Positions 1 to 9,727 of a DNA stretch of 9,727 nucleotides are shown piece by piece (the first letter of the stretch is position 1; each line of letters starts with the position of its first letter). The position numbers were made by a program, and so were the translations under genes. This DNA comes from a virus (taxonomy: Duplodnaviria; Heunggongvirae; Uroviricota; Caudoviricetes): the IMG/VR virus record IMGVR_UViG_2681813145_000002. One strand, given 5' to 3'. The notes beneath the pieces were generated by a model. The model was not told where the DNA came from. It worked only from the letters and a program-made list of their open reading frames with translations, and did no database searches.

Positions 1-62
1 ATGCTGTGCCCCGGTATCCGTCACCCATTTCTCACCATCCCATTTATCATATGGCGTTAACG
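1..62. repeat. Left copy of a direct repeat shared with 8764..8825 (59/60 identical over the first 60 nt, then diverging); truncated by the window edge
   Basis: Direct comparison of the sequence at the two locations; both copies lie in chaperone genes and encode PLTPYDKWDGEKWVTDTGAQH. Confidence 0.85.
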
Positions 63-384
63 GGGCGATAGTGGTTGTATTTTCAGGGTAATCACCCGGA
101 GCTGTGATTTCTTTCGATTCTCCTGTTTCGGTGCTATAGATGATTTCACCGCGATGGTCTGGCACATATTCCCATGAGTTAAAATCTGCAGAACGGCAGA
201 TTGCATAACCAGCTTTATGTGTAACTGGTGCATCTAAACAAGAACATGCCGGGATACCGACGCCAACCGCAAGATATTCAGTTGATGTGGAAATATATTC
301 CCGCGTTTCACCATCATAATTATAAACGGTTATGTCTCCCGCTTTTATGGCAATGAGTTCGTTATTTAATACGGCTTTATTCAT
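1..384 (-). CDS. Tail fibre assembly protein (chaperone), partial; start codon at 384..382, C-terminus beyond the left window edge
   Basis: My own translation of the minus strand from the ATG at 384..382 is open to position 1 (about 128 codons: MNKAVLNNELIAIKAGDITVYNYDGETREY...NSWEYVPDHRGEIIYSTETGE...PLTPYDKWDGEKWVTDTGAQH). The DHRG..Y motif and the PLTPYDKWDGEKW segment are typical of Tfa/gpG-family chaperones. The start overlaps the H stop (TGATG). Positions 1..60 are 59/60 identical to 8764..8823 inside the second chaperone gene. Confidence 0.8.
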   Translation of the reverse strand, partial: MNKAVLNNELIAIKAGDITVYNYDGETREYISTSTEYLAVGVGIPACSCLDAPVTHKAGYAICRSADFNSWEYVPDHRGEIIYSTETGESKEITAPGDYPENTTTIAPLTPYDKWDGEKWVTDTGAQH

Positions 385-1670
385 CAGGCAGCCCTCACGA
401 TATAATTAAAGGCAATGTTACGAGGTCGGTTTTCGTTTGCAGTTGGAACAACTCTGGAAGCATCGAATGTTACTCGCTTTGCATAACCACCTTTAATTGA
501 ATCAGATGAAGCATCTCCGATGACGCTGGTTGTAAAAACGCCAGAATCAGAAGGGTAGGTATTAAACCTGACATCCACTAATGCACCAATTATATTTCGA
601 ATGGCATCTCCCTGTGACGAAAGCAAGCTACGGTTAGTATCTATTCCTCTTCCGTCATCCCAGCCACGAATGAACTCACCACGTAAATCAGGCAATTTAT
701 TTGTCGGGTAAGCCTTTGCCAGTTCCGGGTATTCTTCAGCAGAAAAAGCCGCACCGTTGCATTTCAGCCAGCCTGTTGGCGGAGTGGCGGAAGGCCACGG
801 AACAGGTACACCAACGGGTAACGCTGAGCCTTCTCCCAAACCAAGGTATGCGAGAAGACCAGCCACATCCTTTCCACTCAAATGAGTCAGCGTCTCATCC
901 AGTGGTTGCTTACCTGACAGCGCATTGTTAATGGTGGTGCTGAATTTCGGGTCATTGTTGATAGCTGCTGCAATTTCCTTCAGCGTGTCCAGCGTGGCTG
1001 GCGCACCGTCAATCAGAGCGGTAATAGCAGCCTGTACAAACGCAGTGGTCGCAATCCGCGTGGTGTTATTTCCTGCGGCAGGCGTCGGCGCTTTTGGTTC
1101 TCCGGTAAATGTCGGATTATGTTTCTGCGCATACTGGGTATGAGGATCCTGTGCGGCAATGTGGTTTCTCATCTGTTCATCCACATACAGCCTTAATTCC
1201 AGGACTTCATCATCCACGTATTTACGGGTCGCCAGTACCACCGACGGGTCGATTTTCAGCGTAATAGCTTCGGTATTCGTGACAACCAGAATCATGCGGA
1301 TAGTCTGGGTACGACCGCTGCCTTCCTGCAACTGCGGTTTGTACGTTTCCGGGCAGTTCGCCACCGCAATGAGTACGCCTTCATCATCATAAAGCCCAAT
1401 CTCACGGATCCAGAATCCGCCCTCGTTCTCAGGGATGATTTGCTCCGCAATAATCTGGCTCTGGTTGTTCGGGTCAACACTCAGAAGATTCAGCGGCGCG
1501 ATGCGTTTCTGGTTAATCAGTTTTGTCTGTGCCGGGTCTGGTGTCGGCAAGACACCATTCGCATCACCAACGGCCATTTGCGTCAGATTCAGCTTACTGC
1601 CGAGCATCGTCGCGTTAGCCAGCCGTGCTGCGCCCTGATTAGTCAGAATGGCGTAGTATTTCACTGTCAT
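384..1670 (-). CDS. H: Tail fibre protein (P2 gpH-like), conserved N-terminal and collar region plus variable C-terminal receptor-binding part
   Basis: 428-aa ORF from the six-frame track. The N-terminus (MTVKYYAILTNQGAARLA...MAVGD...GGFWIREIGLYDDEGVLIAVAN) follows the conserved pattern of P2 H / Mu S type fibres. The collar motif DPKFSTTINNALSGKQPLDETLT and the C-terminal ...PRNIAFNYIVRAA ending are typical of this family. It sits after gene I with an ATGA overlap. Confidence 0.9.
   Translation of the reverse strand: MTVKYYAILTNQGAARLANATMLGSKLNLTQMAVGDANGVLPTPDPAQTKLINQKRIAPLNLLSVDPNNQSQIIAEQIIPENEGGFWIREIGLYDDEGVLIAVANCPETYKPQLQEGSGRTQTIRMILVVTNTEAITLKIDPSVVLATRKYVDDEVLELRLYVDEQMRNHIAAQDPHTQYAQKHNPTFTGEPKAPTPAAGNNTTRIATTAFVQAAITALIDGAPATLDTLKEIAAAINNDPKFSTTINNALSGKQPLDETLTHLSGKDVAGLLAYLGLGEGSALPVGVPVPWPSATPPTGWLKCNGAAFSAEEYPELAKAYPTNKLPDLRGEFIRGWDDGRGIDTNRSLLSSQGDAIRNIIGALVDVRFNTYPSDSGVFTTSVIGDASSDSIKGGYAKRVTFDASRVVPTANENRPRNIAFNYIVRAA
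831..856. other. Candidate Gin/Hin-family crossover site (site 1), TTCTCCCAAACC-AA-GGTATGCGAGAA, inside H at the constant/variable boundary
   Basis: 26-bp imperfect palindrome (12-bp half-sites around a central AA; half-sites match 10/12). The half-site pattern TTnTCnnAAACC resembles recalled gix/hix sites. On the coding strand it encodes LAYLGLGE, exactly where the two H-like proteins in the window stop being similar. Confidence 0.55.
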
Positions 1671-2278
1671 GCGTTTACTCTCAGGTTATCAATTAAATGA
1701 ATGGCCGAGGCCGGGAAATAATCCCCTCCGACAATAATGGCCTCCGGGGTGTAGGGATAAACCGTCAGGGCGTCGCCGTGATAGCATCCCGCACCGGCAA
1801 AAATGTTGCCGGTTGTACTTAAACTGATAGCCAGTCCCGTCAGATGGCGGCTTGCAGGTTTTGCATCAGCAACGAGACGCTCCAGCTCCTGATACATTTC
1901 CTCGGTAATACCCTGCTCAAGCACGCCAACAACGATGCGGAACGTCCCCGGCTCCTCGTTGAGCTGCCACCACTCCCTCACCTCAATCAGATAGCCGAGC
2001 GGCTCCACCACACGGCGAATCGCACCAATAGTGCCCTTATGGCAGTGAATGAAATACGCATCGTGGATAACAGCGCGTTTTGTCGCTTCCGGCCACTTAT
2101 CATCCCAGCGGTCAACCGAAAATGACCATGCCAGCCACGGCAGCAGATTTGCCGGACAGGTATCCGGGTTCCACAGCTCACGAATACTGACCGGCGTTCT
2201 TTCAATTTCCGCACAGGCTTTTGCGGCGGCGACCTCAAGCGGTGATGAGCCGGTCGGCAGCAGTCGCGAATCACTCAT
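1667..2278 (-). CDS. I: Baseplate / tail fibre-associated protein (P2 gpI-like)
   Basis: 203-aa ORF, N-terminus MSDSRLLPTGSSPLEVAAAKACAEIE. Positioned between J and H as in P2; 8-nt overlap with the J stop and ATGA overlap with the H start. Confidence 0.88.
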   Translation of the reverse strand: MSDSRLLPTGSSPLEVAAAKACAEIERTPVSIRELWNPDTCPANLLPWLAWSFSVDRWDDKWPEATKRAVIHDAYFIHCHKGTIGAIRRVVEPLGYLIEVREWWQLNEEPGTFRIVVGVLEQGITEEMYQELERLVADAKPASRHLTGLAISLSTTGNIFAGAGCYHGDALTVYPYTPEAIIVGGDYFPASAIHLIDNLRVNA

Positions 2279-3179
2279 CCGAGCCTCCGGTCACGACGCT
2301 GTATTCGGTGCAGAAAGACGCCTGCGTACTGTTGAGCACAATGTCGGCCAGTGGTGCGGCCAGCTCGACACGCTGCACGCCTTCCACATGCAAAGCGGCA
2401 TAAATGGCAGACAGACGGATGTCACGCCCCAGCCGGTGCTGTGCCGTGATGTACGCTTCCAGTTTTTTCACGGCGGCAGCGCGAATGGGTTCGCTTTCGG
2501 GACCTGGGTAAAGGTAAAGCGTGGCGTTTATCTGGTATTCAACGATGGCGGCAGACTGCACGGTCACGCGGTCGGCCACCGGCCTGACGTCCTCGCCATT
2601 AAGGGCGTTACGCACCACAGCCAGCAGGTCTTCGGATGCGACGCCGTTATTTTCACGTGACAGCACAGAGATGGTGACGCAGGCCGGAGACGGACTGGTG
2701 ACAGAAATATCCGCGACACGCCCGTCAGCACTGCGACCATGATACTGATAGGCACCCACCGACCCGGCGACGCTTAAACCTTCAAACGCCTGCTGAATAC
2801 GCAGACGATAATCGGTGTCAGATTCCATCACTGCCGGTGTCGGCGGGAGGGTCGAATCATCTGCCGGGGTGATAGTCAGGCGCGTGGTGTTGTAATTGGC
2901 ACCAATCACATCAAGGTCATTACCGGCGGCACAGGCCAGCATCACCGCCCGTGCGGCCTCATTCACACGCTGACGCCAGATAAGCTCACGATAAGCATTT
3001 TCCTCCAGAAGTTTGACGAGAGGCTCAGATTCCAGCGTCAGGGTACGGGCGACCGCCTCCTGCTGGTCTTCCGGGTAAAGGGAAATCAGTGTCGCCTTGC
3101 GTTCGGCGAGAATGGTTTCAAAGTCCAGCTCCTCGACCACATCCGGTGCGGGTAGCTGGTTCAGGTCGATAATCGGCAT
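2271..3179 (-). CDS. J: Baseplate assembly (wedge) protein (P2 gpJ-like)
   Basis: 302-aa ORF in the conserved W-J-I position; size and sequence consistent with the gpJ / T4 gp6-like baseplate family (recognised by recall). Confidence 0.9.
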   Translation of the reverse strand: MPIIDLNQLPAPDVVEELDFETILAERKATLISLYPEDQQEAVARTLTLESEPLVKLLEENAYRELIWRQRVNEAARAVMLACAAGNDLDVIGANYNTTRLTITPADDSTLPPTPAVMESDTDYRLRIQQAFEGLSVAGSVGAYQYHGRSADGRVADISVTSPSPACVTISVLSRENNGVASEDLLAVVRNALNGEDVRPVADRVTVQSAAIVEYQINATLYLYPGPESEPIRAAAVKKLEAYITAQHRLGRDIRLSAIYAALHVEGVQRVELAAPLADIVLNSTQASFCTEYSVVTGGSDE

Positions 3180-3183
3180 GGTT

Positions 3184-3531
3184 TCAACTCACAGGAATGG
3201 TTAACGAAAGTGGCTGGCCGGTGTCGTTGTGCTGACCGGTTAACGTGACCGTCATTCGCCCGTCAAAACTGCGCTCAGTGGTGACGGATGACAGGGTGAC
3301 GCGGGGTTCCCATTTCAGCACTGCCATGTAACAGGCGACCTTAATCTGCAACTCAAGCGCCGGAGTCTGCGGCTGGTCAATCATTGACGCCAGCAACGAG
3401 CCGTAATCACGACGCATCACCCGTGAGCCGACAGGTGTGCGCAGGATATCGCCGATACTCTGGCTGATATGCTCAAGGTCAGTGACAGTCAGGCCATCAC
3501 TGCGATTCATTCCGAGATAACGCGCTGTCAT
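3184..3531 (-). CDS. W: Baseplate protein (P2 gpW-like, gp25-like)
   Basis: 115-aa ORF; ATGA overlap with the V stop; conserved V-W-J order. Confidence 0.9.
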   Translation of the reverse strand: MTARYLGMNRSDGLTVTDLEHISQSIGDILRTPVGSRVMRRDYGSLLASMIDQPQTPALELQIKVACYMAVLKWEPRVTLSSVTTERSFDGRMTVTLTGQHNDTGQPLSLTIPVS

Positions 3532-4163
3532 AGAGGACTCCCGGTTGTGCCGCCGCTGTCGCCTGGGTGTTTGTGGGTATGCAGTACCTTCCCGTTTGAT
3601 GAGAGTTCACCGCCGGTGTGTTCAATGTTGCCGCGCATCGTCCCGCCCTTCTGCACTTCCAGCGTGCCGGTAATCAGCTTGTTAGTGCAGACCACCTCCG
3701 GTGTGTCCAGGGTGACGCGGGTTGATGCTTTCACCACGACCACCGGCACCATGGCAGTAACAGAATCAGAAGCCGTCACGCTGGCCGTTTTAATTCCGCT
3801 TACCGTGAGTGCACTGGTTTCGGGTTCATACTCAATCACCGCCCCGTCAGGGAAACGGATATGCATGGCATCCGCCGACGCAGACGGCGCGGGGTTATCG
3901 CCGGAATAAATCCCCGGCAGAACGAACGCCGTGTCGAGTTCACCGCCCACGGCCAGAATCAGCACCTGTTCCCCCACGGAAGGTGCCCACCATGTGCGCG
4001 AACGCCCGGCACGATGGGTCAGCCACTGCAGCCAGTCGGTGCACATGCTGCCGGTCTGCACACGGCAGCGACCGGCGTTAAGGTCGGTTTCGACGACAAG
4101 GCCGGTACGAATCATGTTGCGCAGTGCGCGCGCGAGTTCCTGAATATTTGCAAGAGTGTTCAT
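3528..4163 (-). CDS. V: Baseplate spike / hub protein (P2 gpV-like)
   Basis: 211-aa ORF beginning MNTLANIQELARALRNMIRTGL, which matches my recollection of P2 gpV in sequence and length. Confidence 0.9.
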   Translation of the reverse strand: MNTLANIQELARALRNMIRTGLVVETDLNAGRCRVQTGSMCTDWLQWLTHRAGRSRTWWAPSVGEQVLILAVGGELDTAFVLPGIYSGDNPAPSASADAMHIRFPDGAVIEYEPETSALTVSGIKTASVTASDSVTAMVPVVVVKASTRVTLDTPEVVCTNKLITGTLEVQKGGTMRGNIEHTGGELSSNGKVLHTHKHPGDSGGTTGSPL

Positions 4164-4175
4164 AACGGGAAGGAT

Positions 4176-4197
4176 GCCGCCGGGTCATACCGGCGGC
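4176..4197. repeat. GC-rich inverted repeat (8-bp stem GCCGCCGG/CCGGCGGC, 6-nt loop) in the 66-bp S-V intergenic gap
   Basis: Seen directly: gccgccgg-gtcata-ccggcggc. It lies 13-34 nt upstream of the V start codon on the coding strand and is not followed by a U-run. Confidence 0.5.
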
Positions 4198-4229
4198 AAT
4201 GTGACGATGAGGTGTCGGAAATGGCACAA

Positions 4230-4682
4230 CTAACGGTCGAGATGAGCCAGGATAATCTCTTCAATCATCTGCACATCCTCACCGGTAAAGCCGAGCAGAG
4301 GACGCGCCGGATAATCAATTTTCTTACCGTCTTTCCGGGTTTCTTCCGACAGACCGAACTGATGCACACTGGCGATTTTCGGTGACTTCCCGCCGTAAAA
4401 CTCCATTGATGACTGTTCCGGGCTGGCGCGGATATGCAAAAAACGACTGGTGATAAGTTTCGCAAACATTTTTCGCTTAACACGACCGGTCTTTTTTCTG
4501 GAGCTCTGCTGCTGGCGTGGCGCATAGGGTGTGCCATCCGGGGCTTTCTGTGCCATCACCCGACGCTGCTGACTCTGCCGCAGGCGTTTCGCCAGTTCGG
4601 CACTCAGTCGCCGACGCCCTGACGGTGACAGCGATTCAATAAGTCCGGTCAGCCGGTCTTCAAAACGCTTAAACTCATTCAT
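4230..4682 (-). CDS. S: Tail completion / virion morphogenesis protein (P2 gpS-like)
   Basis: 150-aa ORF; size and position (after R, before V) as in P2; 8-nt overlap with R. Confidence 0.88.
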   Translation of the reverse strand: MNEFKRFEDRLTGLIESLSPSGRRRLSAELAKRLRQSQQRRVMAQKAPDGTPYAPRQQQSSRKKTGRVKRKMFAKLITSRFLHIRASPEQSSMEFYGGKSPKIASVHQFGLSEETRKDGKKIDYPARPLLGFTGEDVQMIEEIILAHLDR

Positions 4683-5142
4683 CCCACTTGCTCACCAGTT
4701 CGCCATTGATATACAGCTCCATCGGGCGGGTGACCGGCTCCGGCGGCGGGGGTTCCGGGATATTCTTCACATGCAGTGCGCCATCCACCTCACTGACCAG
4801 CGTGCGCTCGGTCAGCATCAGGCTGATGCTGATATCAAAGCTGCTGTCATTGTTGATGTCCGCATAAAACGTGAAGCCCTTTTTCTGGCCTGCGTCGGTG
4901 GTCATGATGTCGGGCTGATTTTCCCGCAGCCACGCCAGCACCGGCACGATGAGCAGGTCAAAATCACCGGTAAAGTCGGTCACAATGACATTGAGCGTGT
5001 AACGCTTTTCGAATGACAGCGACGTCGCCAGCGTGGAGGCAATACTCCCGTTATCCACGAATATCCGAAGCATCTCGGGGCTTGTTTTCAGCACCGTGAC
5101 GGCATCAGTCAGCGCCCTGCGCAGGCTGTCGGGTTTGAGCAT
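4675..5142 (-). CDS. R: Tail completion protein (P2 gpR-like)
   Basis: 155-aa ORF; size and position between the lysis genes and S match P2 R. Confidence 0.88.
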   Translation of the reverse strand: MLKPDSLRRALTDAVTVLKTSPEMLRIFVDNGSIASTLATSLSFEKRYTLNVIVTDFTGDFDLLIVPVLAWLRENQPDIMTTDAGQKKGFTFYADINNDSSFDISISLMLTERTLVSEVDGALHVKNIPEPPPPEPVTRPMELYINGELVSKWDE

Positions 5143-5395
5143 CGTTTTCGTCCTGACAGTGTTTAATCATTTTTATCTGGCTGGCACAGCGTGCCAGCGC
5201 GTTCTCAAGCTGCCGGATATCGGCACTTAAATCACCGTTCGTCTCCGGGTCACTGCCCGGCATCGGGCAAAGACTCACTTTCGGGCAGGCGTTGGCGACA
5301 ATCACTGGCGTCGGTGCAGACCGGGCGCTGGTGCAACCGGCGCACAGCATCAGGCAGGCCAGCGCCGTACCAGCGGCGAAAATCTTCGTTTTCAT
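5105..5395 (-). CDS. lysC: Outer-membrane spanin component (Rz1-like lipoprotein, P2 LysC-like); overlapped arrangement
   Basis: The six-frame ORF 5105..5512 is trimmed to the internal ATG at 5395..5393, which has a GAGG Shine-Dalgarno 8 nt upstream. The 96-aa product begins MKTKIFAAGTALACLMLCAGC (signal-peptide-like with Cys at 18 and 21; the lipobox is non-canonical) and is Pro-rich. It starts inside lysB in another frame, runs past the lysB stop and overlaps the R start. Confidence 0.7.
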   Translation of the reverse strand: MKTKIFAAGTALACLMLCAGCTSARSAPTPVIVANACPKVSLCPMPGSDPETNGDLSADIRQLENALARCASQIKMIKHCQDENDAQTRQPAQGAD

Positions 5396-5675
5396 TGAGT
5401 AACCTCGTGATGGTTTTCTCGCGCTGTGCTTCACGCTTCGCGGCGTTCTCCAGTTCCTGACGCAGTGCCACCTGCGCCAGCTCGTTTTTGTCTGCTCTGG
5501 TGAGGGCAACATGAAGCTGATTTTTCAGCATGGTGATGGTCGTCTGCTGCCCGCTGGCGACGTTGTTCACCCTGTCCAGCGAGGCGCGCAGGCTGGCGTT
5601 TTCATGCTTCGCCAGAAACAGCCCCGCCACCGCCAGCGATAACAACACGACCAGCACAATCATCAGCTTTGACAT
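5250..5675 (-). CDS. lysB: Inner-membrane spanin component (Rz-like, P2 LysB-like)
   Basis: 141-aa ORF with an N-terminal hydrophobic segment (MSKLMIVLVVLLSLAVAGLFLA) followed by a charged, coiled-coil-like region; lies downstream of lysA and contains the lysC start. Confidence 0.85.
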   Translation of the reverse strand: MSKLMIVLVVLLSLAVAGLFLAKHENASLRASLDRVNNVASGQQTTITMLKNQLHVALTRADKNELAQVALRQELENAAKREAQREKTITRLLNENEDFRRWYGAGLPDAVRRLHQRPVCTDASDCRQRLPESESLPDAGQ

Positions 5676-6088
5676 AATTCCCGCCCCTCAAGACGCTGAC
5701 GACAGGCTTTACGTATCAGCCGGAAAAACAGCGACGCCACAAGATAAATCAGCGCGGTAAAAATCCACCCGGCAGCGACCAGCGAGATAAACGTCACCAC
5801 CATCACCACCAGAGCTGCCGCCCGTCTGCGCCACGGCACCGGCTGTAAAAACAGCGACGTGACAATCTTCACGGCCAGCGATTCCGGCGGAAGCTCCCGC
5901 CCGTAGCGCTCAAGTACATACTCAGTGGCATACACGCCGACACCACCGGCAACCACACAGATAGCCGTCGCCAGAATCGCCCAGGCAGCGACAAAATTGA
6001 CGCCCCCGCTCTGCGGGTAAATCAGGGACAGTGCCAGCATCAGCGCCAGCGACACGTTCAGCATCAGTGAAAGGGATAATTTCTTCAT
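5663..6088 (-). CDS. lysA: Lysis-timing membrane protein (P2 LysA-like)
   Basis: 141-aa ORF with several hydrophobic helices; position between the endolysin K and lysB as in P2; GGAG Shine-Dalgarno upstream. Confidence 0.82.
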   Translation of the reverse strand: MKKLSLSLMLNVSLALMLALSLIYPQSGGVNFVAAWAILATAICVVAGGVGVYATEYVLERYGRELPPESLAVKIVTSLFLQPVPWRRRAAALVVMVVTFISLVAAGWIFTALIYLVASLFFRLIRKACRQRLEGRELCQS

Positions 6089-6102
6089 GGTGTTTACTCC
6101 GT

Positions 6103-6600
6103 TTAAGCCAGTACGCCGCCAGCGGTACGCCAGACGGTGACCAGTTTTTCCAGTGAATGCTCACGCTGACCGTAACCGGCACCCGGCAGGGACGCCCAGA
6201 TATTGCGACAGCGTGAAATGGCGCGCTCAATGCGTCCCGCCCGGATGTCATCCAGTGCACCGCGTTCGCGGATCAACTGAATGGCGAGTCTGTCCTGTGA
6301 CAACGGACTGAAATCCGGCAGGGCAAGCTGTTTGCGGTAATGCGGCCAGAACAGGTAAAGCTGCTGATAGCGACCGGAGGCCGTGGACTTTTCACCGCGA
6401 CGGTTAAACACCTTCGCCGGTCGGCCATGCGCGAACGGGTGGTCACTGTAGTCGGTGAAAATTTCCGGCTTCCCGTCCAGTCCGGTGACTATCACGTCAT
6501 AGCCCCGGTTTTTCGTCAGCGGATGGTTTGCCGTCCCTTCGGACACGGCCAGCATGTCGAGAAAGGCCGCGATATTCTGATGCGTGTTAATTACCGGCAT
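6103..6600 (-). CDS. K: Endolysin, phage lysozyme (P2 gpK-like)
   Basis: 165-aa ORF beginning MPVINTHQNIAAFLDMLAVSEGT, which matches my recollection of P2 K; start overlaps the holin stop by 1 nt (TAATG). Confidence 0.9.
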   Translation of the reverse strand: MPVINTHQNIAAFLDMLAVSEGTANHPLTKNRGYDVIVTGLDGKPEIFTDYSDHPFAHGRPAKVFNRRGEKSTASGRYQQLYLFWPHYRKQLALPDFSPLSQDRLAIQLIRERGALDDIRAGRIERAISRCRNIWASLPGAGYGQREHSLEKLVTVWRTAGGVLA

Positions 6601-6881
6601 TACGGTTTCCCCCTGCCCTTAAAGCGGCGCTGAATGGCAATCTCAATCACCTGATAACCGGCGATACCCAGCATGGAGCCGATGCCGCACACCGCAGGCA
6701 GTGACAGGTCAGGAAACTGCACCAGAACAACACCGGCAACCATCGAGACAAAACCACCGAGCAACATGCGCCCGATAAACAGACGCGGGGTGATGGGTTC
6801 ACCACCGGCAAGCACCTTGCCGACAACAATCAGAACCCCAATCATGAAAAGCGACAGGACGCTTTTTTCTTCTGCTGTCAT
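6600..6881 (-). CDS. Y: Holin (P2 gpY-like)
   Basis: 93-aa ORF with multiple transmembrane-like hydrophobic segments and a charged C-terminus (RRFKGRGKP); GGGAG Shine-Dalgarno upstream; immediately precedes the endolysin. Confidence 0.88.
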   Translation of the reverse strand: MTAEEKSVLSLFMIGVLIVVGKVLAGGEPITPRLFIGRMLLGGFVSMVAGVVLVQFPDLSLPAVCGIGSMLGIAGYQVIEIAIQRRFKGRGKP

Positions 6882-6884
6882 GCG

Positions 6885-7088
6885 TTACTCCCACAGATTG
6901 ACAGTTTCAGCCACGGGCGCGGTCTGAACGTCGGGCAGTTCGACGGCGGTGCCGTGCGGCAGCACCGCGCCCAGTTCAGCCAGTCCCGGATTTGCGGCGA
7001 GCACGGTCTCAACCACGCCCTCAGTGCGCCCGTAATACCGGACACAAATGGCGTCGAGCGTGTCGCCCTGTAGCGCAAAGGTCTTCAT
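6885..7088 (-). CDS. X: Tail protein X (small LysM-like protein, P2 gpX-like)
   Basis: The six-frame ORF 6885..7157 is trimmed to the ATG at 7088..7086 (MKTFALQGDTLDAICVRYYGRTEGVVETVLAANPGL...), giving 67 aa; the start overlaps the L stop by 1 nt. Confidence 0.85.
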   Translation of the reverse strand: MKTFALQGDTLDAICVRYYGRTEGVVETVLAANPGLAELGAVLPHGTAVELPDVQTAPVAETVNLWE

Positions 7089-7597
7089 CAGATTTGACTC
7101 ACGATGCAGCGCGGCTTGTCCTGGATACGCGCCACCGCCCAGCGCATATCCCGCCACAGTTCATCGATGGTGCTGTCAATGCTGTCAGCCTTCTTGTCGC
7201 CTTTCGCACTGGCATCCACGCCGCGGTAACGCTCATAAAGCGACGCGGTCGCCATCGCACACACGGCGCGCTCGTAGTAAAAAACCTTGATGCTTTCACC
7301 GTCGATGTCGTCCGCCGGGACGTCCGCCAGACGCGTAAAACCGGCGGCAATTTTCTGTTCGCGGTACTCGTACAGCTCCGCATTCGTCTCCGCCATGCCT
7401 GACTTGATGGCCTCACGCAGACGGGCGGGGGCGACGGTCTGCTCAAGGCGCATACGTTCCCGGACGCGCTTCGGGTCGATATCGGGAAAAAAGAACGTGT
7501 TTTTAATCACCGGCTCGTCGCCTGCCGGTTGCGGGATGACCACCGTACCCTCACCGGACACGGGAGCCTCCTTTCGCGGAATAATCAGCGTCATCAT
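7088..7597 (-). CDS. L: Head completion / stabilisation protein (P2 gpL-like)
   Basis: The six-frame ORF 7088..7657 is trimmed to the ATG at 7597..7595 (MMTLIIPRKEAPVSGEG...), giving 169 aa with a GAGG Shine-Dalgarno 9 nt upstream; sequence and length fit P2 L as I recall it. Confidence 0.87.
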   Translation of the reverse strand: MMTLIIPRKEAPVSGEGTVVIPQPAGDEPVIKNTFFFPDIDPKRVRERMRLEQTVAPARLREAIKSGMAETNAELYEYREQKIAAGFTRLADVPADDIDGESIKVFYYERAVCAMATASLYERYRGVDASAKGDKKADSIDSTIDELWRDMRWAVARIQDKPRCIVSQI

Positions 7598-7696
7598 GAC
7601 TACCTCTGAAAAGTCGGGCGGTGGACGCCGGTGCAGTGTCAGGTGATTCACCCTCACTGACCGGCGTGCCGCCCTGGCGCGGGGCGCATTCGGTTG

Positions 7697-7792
7697 TTAA
7701 CTGGCTTTCTTTTTCGGGCGTCCACGTTTTGCCGGTGTCACGCTCCGGGTCTTACGCGGGGTACGGGTGGCCGCTTTTGGCTGCGGCTCCAT
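7697..7792 (-). CDS. Hypothetical short basic ORF (31 aa, [31 protein letters not shown]) with an AT-hook-like RGRP core; possibly a C-terminal remnant of a truncated gene
   Basis: My own translation; it is below the 60-aa cut-off of the ORF track. It starts immediately outside crossover site 3 and ends 100 nt before L. No convincing Shine-Dalgarno was checked, so coding status is uncertain. Confidence 0.2.
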
Positions 7793-7799
7793 CTCTGCA

Positions 7800-7825
7800 T
7801 TTTCATAAACGTTGGTTTGGGAGAA
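7800..7825. other. Candidate Gin/Hin-family crossover site (site 3), TTTTCATAAACG-TT-GGTTTGGGAGAA, inverted relative to sites 1 and 2
   Basis: The right half-site GGTTTGGGAGAA is the exact reverse complement of the left half-site of sites 1 and 2 (TTCTCCCAAACC). The central dinucleotide is TT versus AA in the others. The left half is degenerate (8/12). Confidence 0.5.
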
Positions 7826-8131
7826 GCGGCAAAACGGAATGTGGGAACAGGGGAAAATCAGATACCTAGTATGTCAGAATGGACATCTGGGACAGGATGG
7901 AATAGAGACCCGTCGGGGAGAATAATACAGCGGGGATTTGCTATGACATCAAGCCAAACCAACATTTTATTCCCGATACCATTTCCGTATGACGATTTCG
8001 AAGTTATCGTTTGTGCAGCAGATACAGGAGCAAATAAAGGGGCCGTAAATGTGTTGCGAAAATCGAGGCAGGGGTTTTCTGTTTCACAGGTTGGAAGTAT
8101 GCCAGTCGCATACAGATGGATAGCGGGGTGA
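7826..8131 (+). other. Promoterless alternative tail fibre variable (receptor-binding tip) cassette, about 102 codons, in frame with crossover site 3
   Basis: The plus-strand frame through site 3 encodes GLGE at the site, the same as H at site 1, and stays open to the stop at 8129..8131 (...[42 protein letters not shown]...VAYRWIAG). There is no upstream constant region and no good Shine-Dalgarno for the internal ATG at 7871. It is followed by its own chaperone gene. Confidence 0.6.
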
Positions 8132-8574
8132 TTGAAATGTATAAATTTGATCCAAAGAATGCATTATTCTATCCTGCTGCGTCAATTTCCGATTATAAAT
8201 TGAGCGAAGATGAAATCGCCACATTCACTGATATTAGCGAGGAGGATGCAACCGAGTTTTTAGGATTCCCGCCGACTGGAAAAATCAGAGGGTCGGACGG
8301 TTATGGCAATCCTGCATGGGTTGAAATACCTCCACCATCACATGAGGAACTTATTGAACAGGCCGAATCAGAGAGGCAATTATTGATTAACCATGCCAAC
8401 GAATACATGAACAGTAAACAATGGCCTGGTAAAGCGGCTATTGGTCGTCTGAATGGTGAGGAACTGGCGCAATATAATTTGTGGCTGGATTATCTGAACG
8501 CACTGGAACTGGTTGATACCTCCAGTGCGCCAGATATTGAATGGCCTACGCCTCCGGCAGTTCAGGCCAGATGA
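8116..8574 (+). CDS. Tail fibre assembly protein (chaperone) paired with the silent variable cassette; true start may be the ATG at 8137 (MYKFDPKN...)
   Basis: 152-aa ORF with a Tfa-family C-terminus (...[26 protein letters not shown]), similar in pattern to lambda Tfa and Mu U C-termini. Its 3' end overlaps the 3' end of the minus-strand chaperone gene by 29 nt, as with the convergent chaperone genes of the Mu G segment. Confidence 0.8.
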
Positions 8575-9139
8575 CATCCGGCGCGGTGCTGGTATCTGTT
8601 GCCGTCACCGCGTCAATGTAATCCAGCACAGCGTTAAGTCGGGTGGTTTCTGCCTGCGTCAGTTTACGTCCGGCCTGCAATTTCAGTTGAATCAGACTGA
8701 TGGAAGCCATTGCAGTATCAATCAGCGACTGGCGCTGTGCTTCTGCTGCATCTACTGCGGCGCTATGCTGTGCCCCGGTATCCGTCACCCATTTCTCACC
8801 ATCCCATTTATCGTATGGCGTTAACGGTGAAAGCGTGACATAACCGTCTTTGATGGCACCGATATAATCCACTGTAACAGCTGCGCCATTTTCGATTGAG
8901 TAAACAGTCTCATTGCGGTGGTCTTCTTCATGGCTCCATCCCTTACCTGTAAATACTGCCACTCTTCCCGGAATGTTTTCGCCAGGATCAATACCAGTGG
9001 AACAGGCGGGCATACTTACGCCAGTATTAATATATTCATCAGACCAGCCCGTATACTCAGATGTTTCAGCATCATAATAAAAACAACGCATATCGCCCGG
9101 CACTGTAGCCAGCCCATTTTCATCAAAAACAGGTTTCAT
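8546..9139 (-). CDS. Tail fibre assembly protein (chaperone, P2 gpG-like) paired with the right-hand fibre gene
   Basis: 197-aa ORF (MKPVFDENGLA...PLTPYDKWDGEKWVTDTGAQH...[26 protein letters not shown]). The Tfa-family C-terminal motif is present; the start overlaps the stop of the upstream fibre gene by 1 nt (TAATG). Confidence 0.85.
   Translation of the reverse strand: MKPVFDENGLATVPGDMRCFYYDAETSEYTGWSDEYINTGVSMPACSTGIDPGENIPGRVAVFTGKGWSHEEDHRNETVYSIENGAAVTVDYIGAIKDGYVTLSPLTPYDKWDGEKWVTDTGAQHSAAVDAAEAQRQSLIDTAMASISLIQLKLQAGRKLTQAETTRLNAVLDYIDAVTATDTSTAPDVIWPELPEA
8764..8825. repeat. Right copy of the direct repeat shared with 1..62
   Basis: Direct comparison; single mismatch (atcatatgg versus atcgtatgg). 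Confidence 0.85.
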
Positions 9140-9727
9140 TATTTAGCCCTCACCAGAAAGTTAAATGCAATATTTCGCGGTCTGACGGCAATAAAATTCA
9201 CACCATCCCCTACAGCAGAACTGGTGAACTGAAATCTTGAAAAGCCAGGCTGATTACCTGTAATTCCATCATGACTATTAATCGCATGGCCGGACCCTTC
9301 TGGATAATTACCGCCAAATTGCGATAAAGATGTTGCTGCCTGCCAGCTTAATAATTCGCGACCACCATCTGCACCTCGCCCGTCATCCCAGATACGAATG
9401 AAATCACCGCGGGCTTCAGGTAATACCAGCGAAGGAAACACTTTTGCCAGCACAGGGTAATCAGAGGCAGAAAATTTCGCCCCGTTGAACTTCAAAAACA
9501 CCATACTGGACCAGCTGTCGATTACAGTATTTGGCATTGCAGCGGACGGCCAGAAGAACGGAACGCCAATAGCTGGAGCACCTTCTCCCAAACCAAGGTA
9601 TGCAAGAAGACCGGCAACATCCTTCCCACTCAAATTGGTAAGCGTATTGTCCAGCGGTTGTTTACCTGCCAGCGCATTAAGCATTGTCGTGGCAAAGTTC
9701 GGATCATTCCCCAGTGCCGCCGCCAGT
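9139..9727 (-). CDS. Tail fibre protein, 3' portion only (collar plus variable C-terminal domain); 5' end beyond the right window edge
   Basis: The minus-strand frame is open from the window edge (LAAALGNDPNFATTMLNALAGKQPLDNTLTNLSGKDVAGLLAYLGLGEG...) to the stop at 9141..9139. The collar is about 80% similar to that of H at 384..1670 and close to my recollection of the P2 H collar; the part after GLGEG is a different variable domain, ending ...PRNIAFNFLVRAK. Confidence 0.85.
   Translation of the reverse strand, partial: LAAALGNDPNFATTMLNALAGKQPLDNTLTNLSGKDVAGLLAYLGLGEGAPAIGVPFFWPSAAMPNTVIDSWSSMVFLKFNGAKFSASDYPVLAKVFPSLVLPEARGDFIRIWDDGRGADGGRELLSWQAATSLSQFGGNYPEGSGHAINSHDGITGNQPGFSRFQFTSSAVGDGVNFIAVRPRNIAFNFLVRAK
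9583..9608. other. Candidate Gin/Hin-family crossover site (site 2), TTCTCCCAAACC-AA-GGTATGCAAGAA
   Basis: Differs from site 1 at one position; same orientation as site 1 and inverted relative to site 3. It lies at the constant/variable boundary of the right-hand fibre gene and encodes LAYLGLGE. Confidence 0.55.

Follow-up and report, generated by a model that had tools for sequence, protein, structure and literature searches.

Tail-fibre switches of the Pin/Gin type are textbook systems for changing phage host range, and the closest described relatives of the locus reported here are the P segment of the Escherichia coli K-12 element e14 with its invertase PinE, the G segment of Mu with Gin, and the C segment of P1 with Cin together with the Min system of p15B. 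In p15B six sites lie within one 3.5-kb region, and in the known Din-family systems a Fis-dependent enhancer is located in cis, within the 5' part of the invertase gene. Comparable segments occur in the P2-like prophages of E. coli: sequencing and PCR have demonstrated inversions of ~1.8 kb in the fibre loci of such prophages in EPEC (E2348/69; Goldberg et al. 2014, PMC4272514). The cassette described below is itself already known, being a common and annotated feature of E. coli P2-like prophages in many RefSeq genomes. With switches of this type in the textbooks and one of its sites identical to pixR, its biological weight is small.

The window, i.e. the whole stretch of 9,727 nucleotides that was analysed, corresponds to bases 1-9727 of the draft scaffold KQ087901.1, where one N stands at 7791 and a gap of 2,667 Ns follows 9727. 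Bases 7792-9727 are very probably one small contig (contig 2) that holds a complete Pin-type invertible tail-fibre cassette and owes its context to a contig join; the DNA to its left is referred to as contig 1, and the source scaffold beyond the gap as contig 3. Judged by sequence comparison, the cassette appears to reside in a P2-like E. coli prophage of the type found in strain 22AR0750 (comparison locus L002) and to belong to the Din-family serine invertase class. Its features, and a related site on contig 1, are the following:

831..856, plus strand: site A, pixL-like (23/26), inside a complete 428-aa fibre gene (384-1670) on contig 1
7791, no strand: scaffold join, read as the artificial left boundary of the element; N in KQ087901.1, displayed as 'a' in the window
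7792..7799, no strand: invertase-side flank, eight bases TCTCTGCA with which contig 2 ends; L001 and L002 have the same bases between site and recombinase gene
7800..7825, minus strand: site B, invertase-side crossover site; reverse complement TTCTCCCAAACC AA CGTTTATGAAAA
7826..8131, plus strand: tip 3, the alternative fibre C-terminus, 101 aa (Pfam Gp53-like_C, E = 1.2e-8)
8137..8574, plus strand: tfa3, chaperone of tip 3, 145 aa by the annotation of the homologous loci (Caudo_TAP, E = 4.9e-31)
8546..9139, minus strand: tfa2, tail-fibre assembly chaperone of tip 2, 197 aa (Pfam Caudo_TAP, E = 5.6e-27)
9139..9582, minus strand: tip 2, variable fibre C-terminus of 147 aa, fused in frame to Hc'' in the present orientation
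9583..9608, plus strand: site C, crossover site on the side of the constant region; TTCTCCCAAACC AA GGTATGCAAGAA, core AA at 9595-9596
9609..9727, minus strand: Hc'', the final 40 codons of the constant part of the fibre (by translation), running off the window into the 2,667-N gap

A preliminary description of this DNA had placed two inverted 26-bp sites, at 7800..7825 and 9583..9608, around a segment of ~1.8 kb, and two kinds of search agree on it. The inverted-repeat search returned an 18-nt pair (7809-7826 / 9582-9599; 94% complementary, spacing 1,755 nt), and the window has exactly three copies of the 12-mer TTCTCCCAAACC (at 831, at 7814 on the minus strand and at 9583), with four matches at two or fewer mismatches against 0.61 expected from shuffles. 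The three 26-mers, whose alignment to known sites had been called for, were compared with the sites in Table 3 of PMC3241671 and with the e14 sequence read directly. Site B is identical to the published pixR (26/26) and likewise to the site read from K-12 e14 (5106-5131 of locus L010), and the same sequence adjoins a recombinase gene in loci L001, L002, L004 and L005. Site A matches pixL at 23/26 positions and site C at 22/26, the latter also matching mixQ''R' at 23/26 and cixR at 20/26 and sharing left half-site and core with pixL and pixR. Left half-sites and cores are identical in A, B and C; sites A, C and a fourth site, D on contig 3, match pixL/pixR at 22-25/26 with the left half-site and AA core unchanged, and the core dinucleotide AA is common to all four, B being read on the minus strand. 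The likeness to gix and hix sites suggested earlier holds insofar as these are invertase crossover sites, but their closest relatives are those of Pin/e14, with gixL matched at only 16-17/26. Other inverted repeats of 12-19 nt exist in the same 3.2 kb, as would be expected if the repeat were a chance match and the segment two convergent fibre-gene remnants; the chance of this is close to negligible, and the reading is refuted by the identity of site B to pixR at 26/26 positions and by the breakpoints of a natural inversion between strains E5 and E7, which lie exactly in these sites.

The segment between the sites contains alternative tip-plus-chaperone modules on opposite strands, as the preliminary description had it: both chaperones are Caudo_TAP proteins, and tips 2 and 3 are unrelated by BLASTP. 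Tip 2 shows 43% identity with tip 1, 39% with e14 StfE and a weak match to the Collar domain, and tfa2 is 64% identical to e14 TfaE. BLASTP found no similarity of tip 3 to tip 1 or tip 2. This module lacks a start of its own and constitutes the C-terminus of an intact 455-aa fibre protein in L002; the counterpart of tfa3 in L001, L002 and L005 is annotated as a 145-aa tail fiber assembly protein (WP_032252818.1), an alternative start being possible at 8116, and the C-terminal half of tfa3 is 67% identical to e14 TfaP. Across its adjoining site each tip reads GLGE in frame (the minus-strand translation of site C is LAYLGLGE), and inversion in silico produces an unbroken Hc''-tip 3 fusion that ends in IAG* and matches the C-terminus of the 455-aa L002 protein, which bears out the earlier proposal that a flip would yield an in-frame fusion. 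The Hc'' flank is itself 100% identical over 146 bp to the gene of that protein. Promoter-like matches within the segment are at chance level (3 against 3.4 expected), and tip 3 and tfa3 are silent in the assembled orientation.

In E. coli P2-like prophages (RefSeq loci, strains 22AR0750, E5 and E7) the cassette is 96.4-99.6% identical and lies between a fibre constant region and a serine invertase of 189-197 aa. The gene order in L001, L002 and L005 is I, Hc, site, tip/tfa, tfa'/tip', site, recombinase, sheath, which puts the cassette between H, itself behind the baseplate genes J and I, and the invertase and tail sheath gene FI. The recombinases of these orthologues share 86-87% of their residues with PinE and 75-80% with Gin. 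The proteins flanking the cassette are the same in strains E5 and E7, and the 1,788-bp cassette itself, 99.94% identical between them, points the opposite way, the endpoints of the inversion falling inside the 26-mers. L002 carries the same cassette (99.55% identical) in the other orientation, where it yields the intact Hc-tip 3 protein of 455 aa. More broadly, the tip 2-Hc'' junction is present in 73 complete E. coli genomes and the Hc-tip 3 junction in 312. Both orientations thus occur in nature, across strains. Taken together, the sites, the orthologous loci, the two orientations and the inversions in the literature establish a genuine Pin/Gin-type host-range switch; the assignment to the class of the Mu G, P1 C and e14 P segments is upheld by the pix sites, the PinE-like invertase of the orthologues and the inverted cassette in nature.

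The constant part of the fibre lies outside site C, and the convergent tip 2-tfa2 and tip 3-tfa3 modules lie inside the segment. By analogy with the established mechanism of the family, dimers of a PinE-like invertase would bind the two pix sites and form a synapse with an enhancer, bound by Fis and situated in the 5' portion of the invertase gene. Cutting at the central AA, a 180-degree rotation and religation would exchange the last ~100-150 residues of the fibre along with the co-transcribed chaperone, and the new tip may give the progeny phage a different receptor specificity. With the segment as assembled, the late operon would express tip 2 and tfa2, leaving the tip 3 module silent.

The window contains no serine invertase gene (~190 aa, Resolvase catalytic domain plus HTH_7) adjoining a site, although such a gene stands directly outside one site in every orthologous locus (L001, L002, L005). 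Its absence is attributed to the break in the sequence at 7791 and is an effect of assembly rather than a property of the element. Beyond the gap, contig 3 encodes a 197-aa Resolvase+HTH_7 protein that adjoins site D and matches the Gin structure 3uj3 (E = 3e-94). Because site D differs slightly from site B (by one base, in the outer half-site), this gene is assigned, with probability rather than certainty, to another prophage copy. In a scan for degenerate Fis motifs each of the five invertase genes had one conserved 15-mer at +71, and no motif pair 48 bp apart was seen in these genes or in the window, but the same scan also missed the Mu gin control. Should no compatible invertase or enhancer act in this strain, the cassette would be a locked relic with intact-looking sites and genes. 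The assembly has no invertase gene beside site B, and some relatives are indeed disabled, e.g. in EC9952, where an IS21-family element separates cassette and recombinase and the N-terminus of the latter is altered. This reading is nevertheless very unlikely: all four cassette ORFs and both sites are intact, site B matches pixR at 26/26, a complete prophage that has its invertase carries a cassette of 99.55% identity, a PinE-like invertase gene lies on the same scaffold, and contig breaks at the crossover sites fit mixed orientations or repeated flanks.

In the window a fragment of the terminase gene M abuts site B. The only trace of the join is the single N at 7791, displayed as 'a'. The P2 identity of the left-hand DNA stops at 7790, and the sole mismatch between the window and locus L007 is base 7791 (an N run at 3880-3880 of L007). 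Over its last 821 bp contig 1 has an identical second copy in the same assembly, which continues into full-length M, N, O and P. The flanks of contig 2 are 100% identical to the P2-like locus L002 over 146 bp and 36 bp, and thereby to a prophage lineage in which the late genes reach just ~66% identity with those of contig 1. The late genes of contig 1 and the invertase and sheath genes of contig 3 lie on opposite strands, unlike in L001, L002, L004, L005 and L006, and the order and orientation of the three contigs fit a P2-type map only with at least one contig flipped. The M fragment beside site B and the missing invertase are therefore explained by contigs of different prophages having been joined in the scaffold, and their adjacency, which was never sequenced, appears from these comparisons to be a scaffold artefact and not biology.

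The competing view takes the 7790/7791 junction as real, an illegitimate deletion (e.g. between tandem P2-like prophages) having removed everything from the invertase gene through to the 3' end of M. An orphan cassette of this kind would flip only with a trans-acting invertase and an enhancer several kb away, and the compatible site A could support a 7-kb inversion that brings the neighbouring late operon onto tip 3. The scaffolder did set the two contigs just one base apart, the left half-sites and cores of A, B and C are identical, the title of PMC12529663 refers to trans-acting Pin paralogues, and a deletion between tandem prophages would be expected to give exactly this gene order. A real junction is nonetheless quite unlikely, since the N falls exactly where the homology switches, no microhomology is present at the join, contig 1 ends within 821 bp whose identical copy runs normally into M, the flanks of contig 2 match the other lineage at 100%, contig 3 has an orientation relative to contig 1 that is seen in no comparison locus, and searches for the junction elsewhere were negative (in 5,426 complete E. 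coli genomes, the GTDB species-representative genomes, IMG/VR and the JGI metagenomes). A composite of two P2-like prophages, with an invertase-less pix cassette truly placed beside a second late operon, is highly improbable. If it were true, a PinE-like invertase acting in trans could flip either the 1.8-kb cassette or the 7-kb block between A and B, the latter event bringing an entire late operon, V promoter included, onto tip 3, and one fibre constant region could reach the tips of two cassettes. The scaffold join remains the preferred reading, and with it site A belongs, outside this cassette, to the fibre gene of another P2-like prophage copy; the counterpart of its 428-aa fibre gene in L004 and L006 has its own cassette and a recombinase downstream.

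Three readings of the arrangement, one of them the deletion just described, were considered and set aside. Recombination by the invertase at a pseudo-site in gene M is at odds with the break at 7790/7791, which is 22 bp from the crossover core, and the P2 sequence there has neither a site-like motif nor microhomology. A tandem-prophage deletion fits the gene order but is not needed given the N at 7791 and the repeated sequence in which contig 1 ends. Reading the window as a circular or permuted element, with the right end running into the left fibre gene, is countered by constant-region fragments that are only ~90% identical beside the sites, and by the L001 fibre gene, which has about 220 extra bases.

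The practical lesson concerns draft genomes. Invertible fibre loci of prophages present in several copies break draft assemblies at the crossover sites, scaffolders can then fuse pieces of different prophages, and to a reader of the raw sequence the join looks like a 'missing invertase' or like a gene cut short beside a recombination site.

Among the described systems, the invertible fibre segments of E. coli P2-like prophages (EPEC E2348/69, PMC4272514; 22AR0750, E5, E7) have the same gene order and differ in nothing substantive, the flanks of the window being missing through assembly and the identity figures referring to 22AR0750, E5 and E7 only. The e14 P segment with PinE shares the site family (site B equals pixR, and A and C have the pixL left half-site and the AA core), invertases that in the orthologous loci are 86-87% identical to PinE, and two convergent tip-plus-chaperone modules with tfa2 64% identical to TfaE, tfa3 67% to TfaP in the C-terminal half and tip 2 39% to StfE. 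It differs in that e14 is a lambdoid remnant whereas the prophage here is P2-like (Peduoviridae-type), in that tip 3 (Gp53-like_C) has no detectable similarity to StfP, and in the outer half-site of C, which departs from pixL at four positions. The Mu G segment with Gin has in common the mechanism class, the architecture (S/U versus S'/U'), 26-bp sites with 12-bp half-sites and invertases 75-80% identical in the orthologous loci; the gix core, however, is GA as opposed to AA here, gixL is matched at only 16-17/26, the G segment measures ~3 kb and its tips are unrelated by BLASTP. The C segment of P1 with Cin and the Min system of p15B, finally, likewise use Din-family sites with an AA core and have several compatible sites in one genome, whereas, in contrast to p15B Min, the extra sites here, A and D, lie on separate contigs and in different prophage copies.

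The DNA between sites B and C is the invertible fibre cassette commonly carried by P2-like prophages of E. coli, and it holds the two opposed modules of fibre tip and chaperone that the preliminary description had placed there, with one Gp53-like_C and two Caudo_TAP matches:

Genes of the cassette and crossover sites in the window
7826-8131, plus strand, fibre tip (tip3), Gp53-like_C
8116/8137-8574, plus strand, chaperone tfa3, Caudo_TAP
8546-9139, minus strand, chaperone tfa2, Caudo_TAP
9139-9582, minus strand, fibre tip (tip2), reading on from 40 constant-region codons (Hc'') that run off the window end
831-856, plus strand, site A, TTCTCCCAAACC AA GGTATGCGAGAA
7800-7825, reverse complement, site B, TTCTCCCAAACC AA CGTTTATGAAAA
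9583-9608, plus strand, site C, TTCTCCCAAACC AA GGTATGCAAGAA

The reading of GLGE in frame over the site was borne out for tip2 at C and tip3 at B, and a simulated flip at the core gave one open fusion, as had been anticipated. BLASTP agrees that tip2 and tip3 are unrelated, while the likeness of tfa2 to tfa3 is confined to the C-terminal third; promoter-like matches in the segment are at chance level. A 63-bp stretch is common to tfa2 (8765-8827) and to tfa1 (window 1-63), the chaperone beside the site A gene, at 98.4% identity, and the chaperone repeat covers about 400 bp at about 92% with other chaperones. This repeat is located at the break points of both assembly scaffolds, and homologous recombination there is a likely route by which fibre modules are exchanged.

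The position and inverted orientation of sites B and C had been given accurately: an inverted-repeat search of the window recovers 7809-7826 and 9582-9599 (18 nt, 94% complementary), and motif matches agree. Exact TTCTCCCAAACC occurs at 831 (+), 7814-7825 (-) and 9583 (+) and nowhere else in the window; allowing up to two mismatches gives four matches against 0.61 expected. The proposed alignment to published invertase sites (Din family, PMC3241671 Table 3) found a close match, site B being identical to pixR at 26/26 positions, as it also is to the e14 element of K-12 (L010 5106-5131). Sites A and C carry the left half-site and AA core of pixL/pixR and match pixL at 23/26 and 22/26, respectively, and site C matches mixQ''R' at 23/26. 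Because the pix matches reach 22-26/26, against 16-17/26 for gix and 18-20/26 for hixL, the sites are classed from these alignments as pix-type, not gix-type. Inside tip3, the 14-mer CCAAACCAACATTT (7954-7967) matches the core region of site B in inverted orientation (93%), resembling an inner half-site plus core in the orientation of site C. Widened to a 26-mer it agrees with site B at only 15/26 positions, and it is probably a chance match, possibly a weak secondary site.

Both cassette orientations occur in nature. Strains E5 and E7 encode the same I, J, recombinase and chaperone proteins and are collinear in the flanks, but their 1,788-bp cassettes, 99.94% identical, lie in opposite orientations, and the alignments share an overlap equal to the 18-bp repeat. 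The cassette of strain 22AR0750 is 99.55% identical to that of the window and flipped relative to flanks that are 100% identical to window 9582-9727 and 7791-7826; its fibre gene encodes Hc fused to tip3, intact at 455 aa and equal to the product of the simulated inversion of the window. Among complete genomes, 73 contain the tip2-Hc'' junction and 312 the Hc-tip3 junction. In EPEC E2348/69, sequencing and PCR showed inversion at fibre loci of P2-like prophages: one locus has two variants, and another has three repeats and four variants side by side, with inversions of about 1,800 and 2,200 bp (Goldberg et al. 2014, PMC4272514).

The full cassette, at 96.4-99.6% identity, recurs in no fewer than seven complete E. 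coli genomes. In E7, 22AR0750 and E5 it is carried by P2-like prophages in the order baseplate J, I, fibre constant part, site, tip/chaperone, chaperone'/tip', site, recombinase and tail sheath FI. In strain EC9952 an IS21-family element (ISEc12 istA/istB; L004 5331-7633) separates the fibre cassette from the recombinase gene. The annotated recombinase there (206 aa) has a differing N-terminus, MLLTDLLHGNTH..., which suggests that the switch is disabled. A separate, replicon-sized record of 37,446 bp in the complete assembly of E. coli 13P477T, CP019275.1, contains the Hc-tip3 junction (96.5% identical) together with roughly 1 kb of cassette DNA, window 7809-8827, at 99.6%; it may represent a P2-like phage genome in excised, circular form.

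Left of site B the window lacks the invertase expected there and has P2-type DNA instead, 99.5% identical to P2 itself, which spans L and the last 30 codons of the terminase gene M and ends exactly at 7790; identity to the invertase flank begins at 7791. That this junction is real is very improbable: no complete E. coli genome crosses 7790/7791, and it is absent from species-representative genomes, IMG/VR and JGI metagenomes. The window, traced through an exact match of its 428-aa fibre protein, corresponds to positions 1-9727 of KQ087901.1 (19,686 bp; E. coli draft assembly GCA_001030505.1), the sole difference being 'a' at 7791 where the scaffold has N. Since this single N coincides exactly with the switch from gene M to invertase-flank identity, the window joins contig 1 (1-7790) and contig 2 (7792-9727), and the odd surroundings of the cassette are a scaffold artefact. 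The right end of the window adjoins a gap of 2,667 Ns; because this is not a round number, N counts in the scaffold would be gap-size estimates, and one N the join of an estimated gap of about zero. Contig 2 has flanks 100% identical to the 22AR0750 lineage, whose late genes are only about 66% identical to contig 1. Past the gap, contig 3 encodes D, U, T, FII, FI and a 197-aa recombinase (E = 3e-94 to the solved Gin structure 3uj3). These genes and the late genes of contig 1 lie on opposite strands, an arrangement seen in no comparison locus. By this recombinase contig 3 ends one base beyond the inner edge of a fourth pix-like site, site D (25/26 pixR; L009 6719-6745), exactly where two orientations, or the cassette contents of two prophage copies, diverge; mixed orientations in the culture that was sequenced may account for this end.

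Another scaffold of GCA_001030505.1, KQ087897.1, repeats window 22-7790, there with the usual gene neighbourhood of P, O, N, full M, L ... H. The two copies are separated by 109 substitutions, all of them in window 3027-6969; the adjoining 3 kb towards the fibre gene and 821 bp towards M are identical. The end of contig 1 thus falls within an 821-bp repeat, a further sign that the join at 7791 is artificial. Two prophages of mosaic make-up could explain the pattern of substitutions, as could gene conversion between them or the assembly itself. Site A lies inside a complete 428-aa fibre gene (384-1670, minus strand) of a second P2-like prophage, not that of the B-C cassette, followed by the TfaE-like tfa1 (window 1-384, 89% identical), which is cut by the scaffold end. 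In the relatives EC9952 and L006 this fibre gene is followed by its own alternative tip, chaperone and recombinase, which here would fall off the left end of the window. Because the site A gene has its own cassette and recombinase in these relatives, the source strain carries two or more fibre switches of the Pin type, whose inner half-sites are identical.

The demonstrated parts of the mechanism are the pix-type sites with an identical core, alternative tips that are in frame and each come with a chaperone, the PinE-like invertase adjoining the site in orthologous loci, and the two natural orientations. In the known systems Fis works from an enhancer in the 5' part of the invertase gene. A degenerate Fis-motif scan of five invertase genes gave one conserved 15-mer at +71 in all of them and no pair spaced by 48 bp, though it missed the pair in the Mu gin control as well; the window has no such pair either. 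Following the established Gin/Hin/Pin mechanism (summarised in PMC3575834), invertase dimers on both sites would synapse and Fis would activate catalysis; serine-linked double-strand breaks at the AA core, 180-degree rotation and religation would follow. The late operon would read Hc''-tip2 and tfa2 in the assembled orientation and Hc''-tip3 and tfa3 in the flipped one, and by analogy with Mu, P1 and carotovoricin inversion would change receptor specificity. The cassette is already known, being annotated in RefSeq and its inversion already demonstrated. Among named systems the e14 P segment with PinE comes closest, having the same sites and TfaE/TfaP-like chaperones; the invertases of the orthologous cassette loci (189-197 aa) are 86-87% identical to e14 PinE and 75-80% to Gin.
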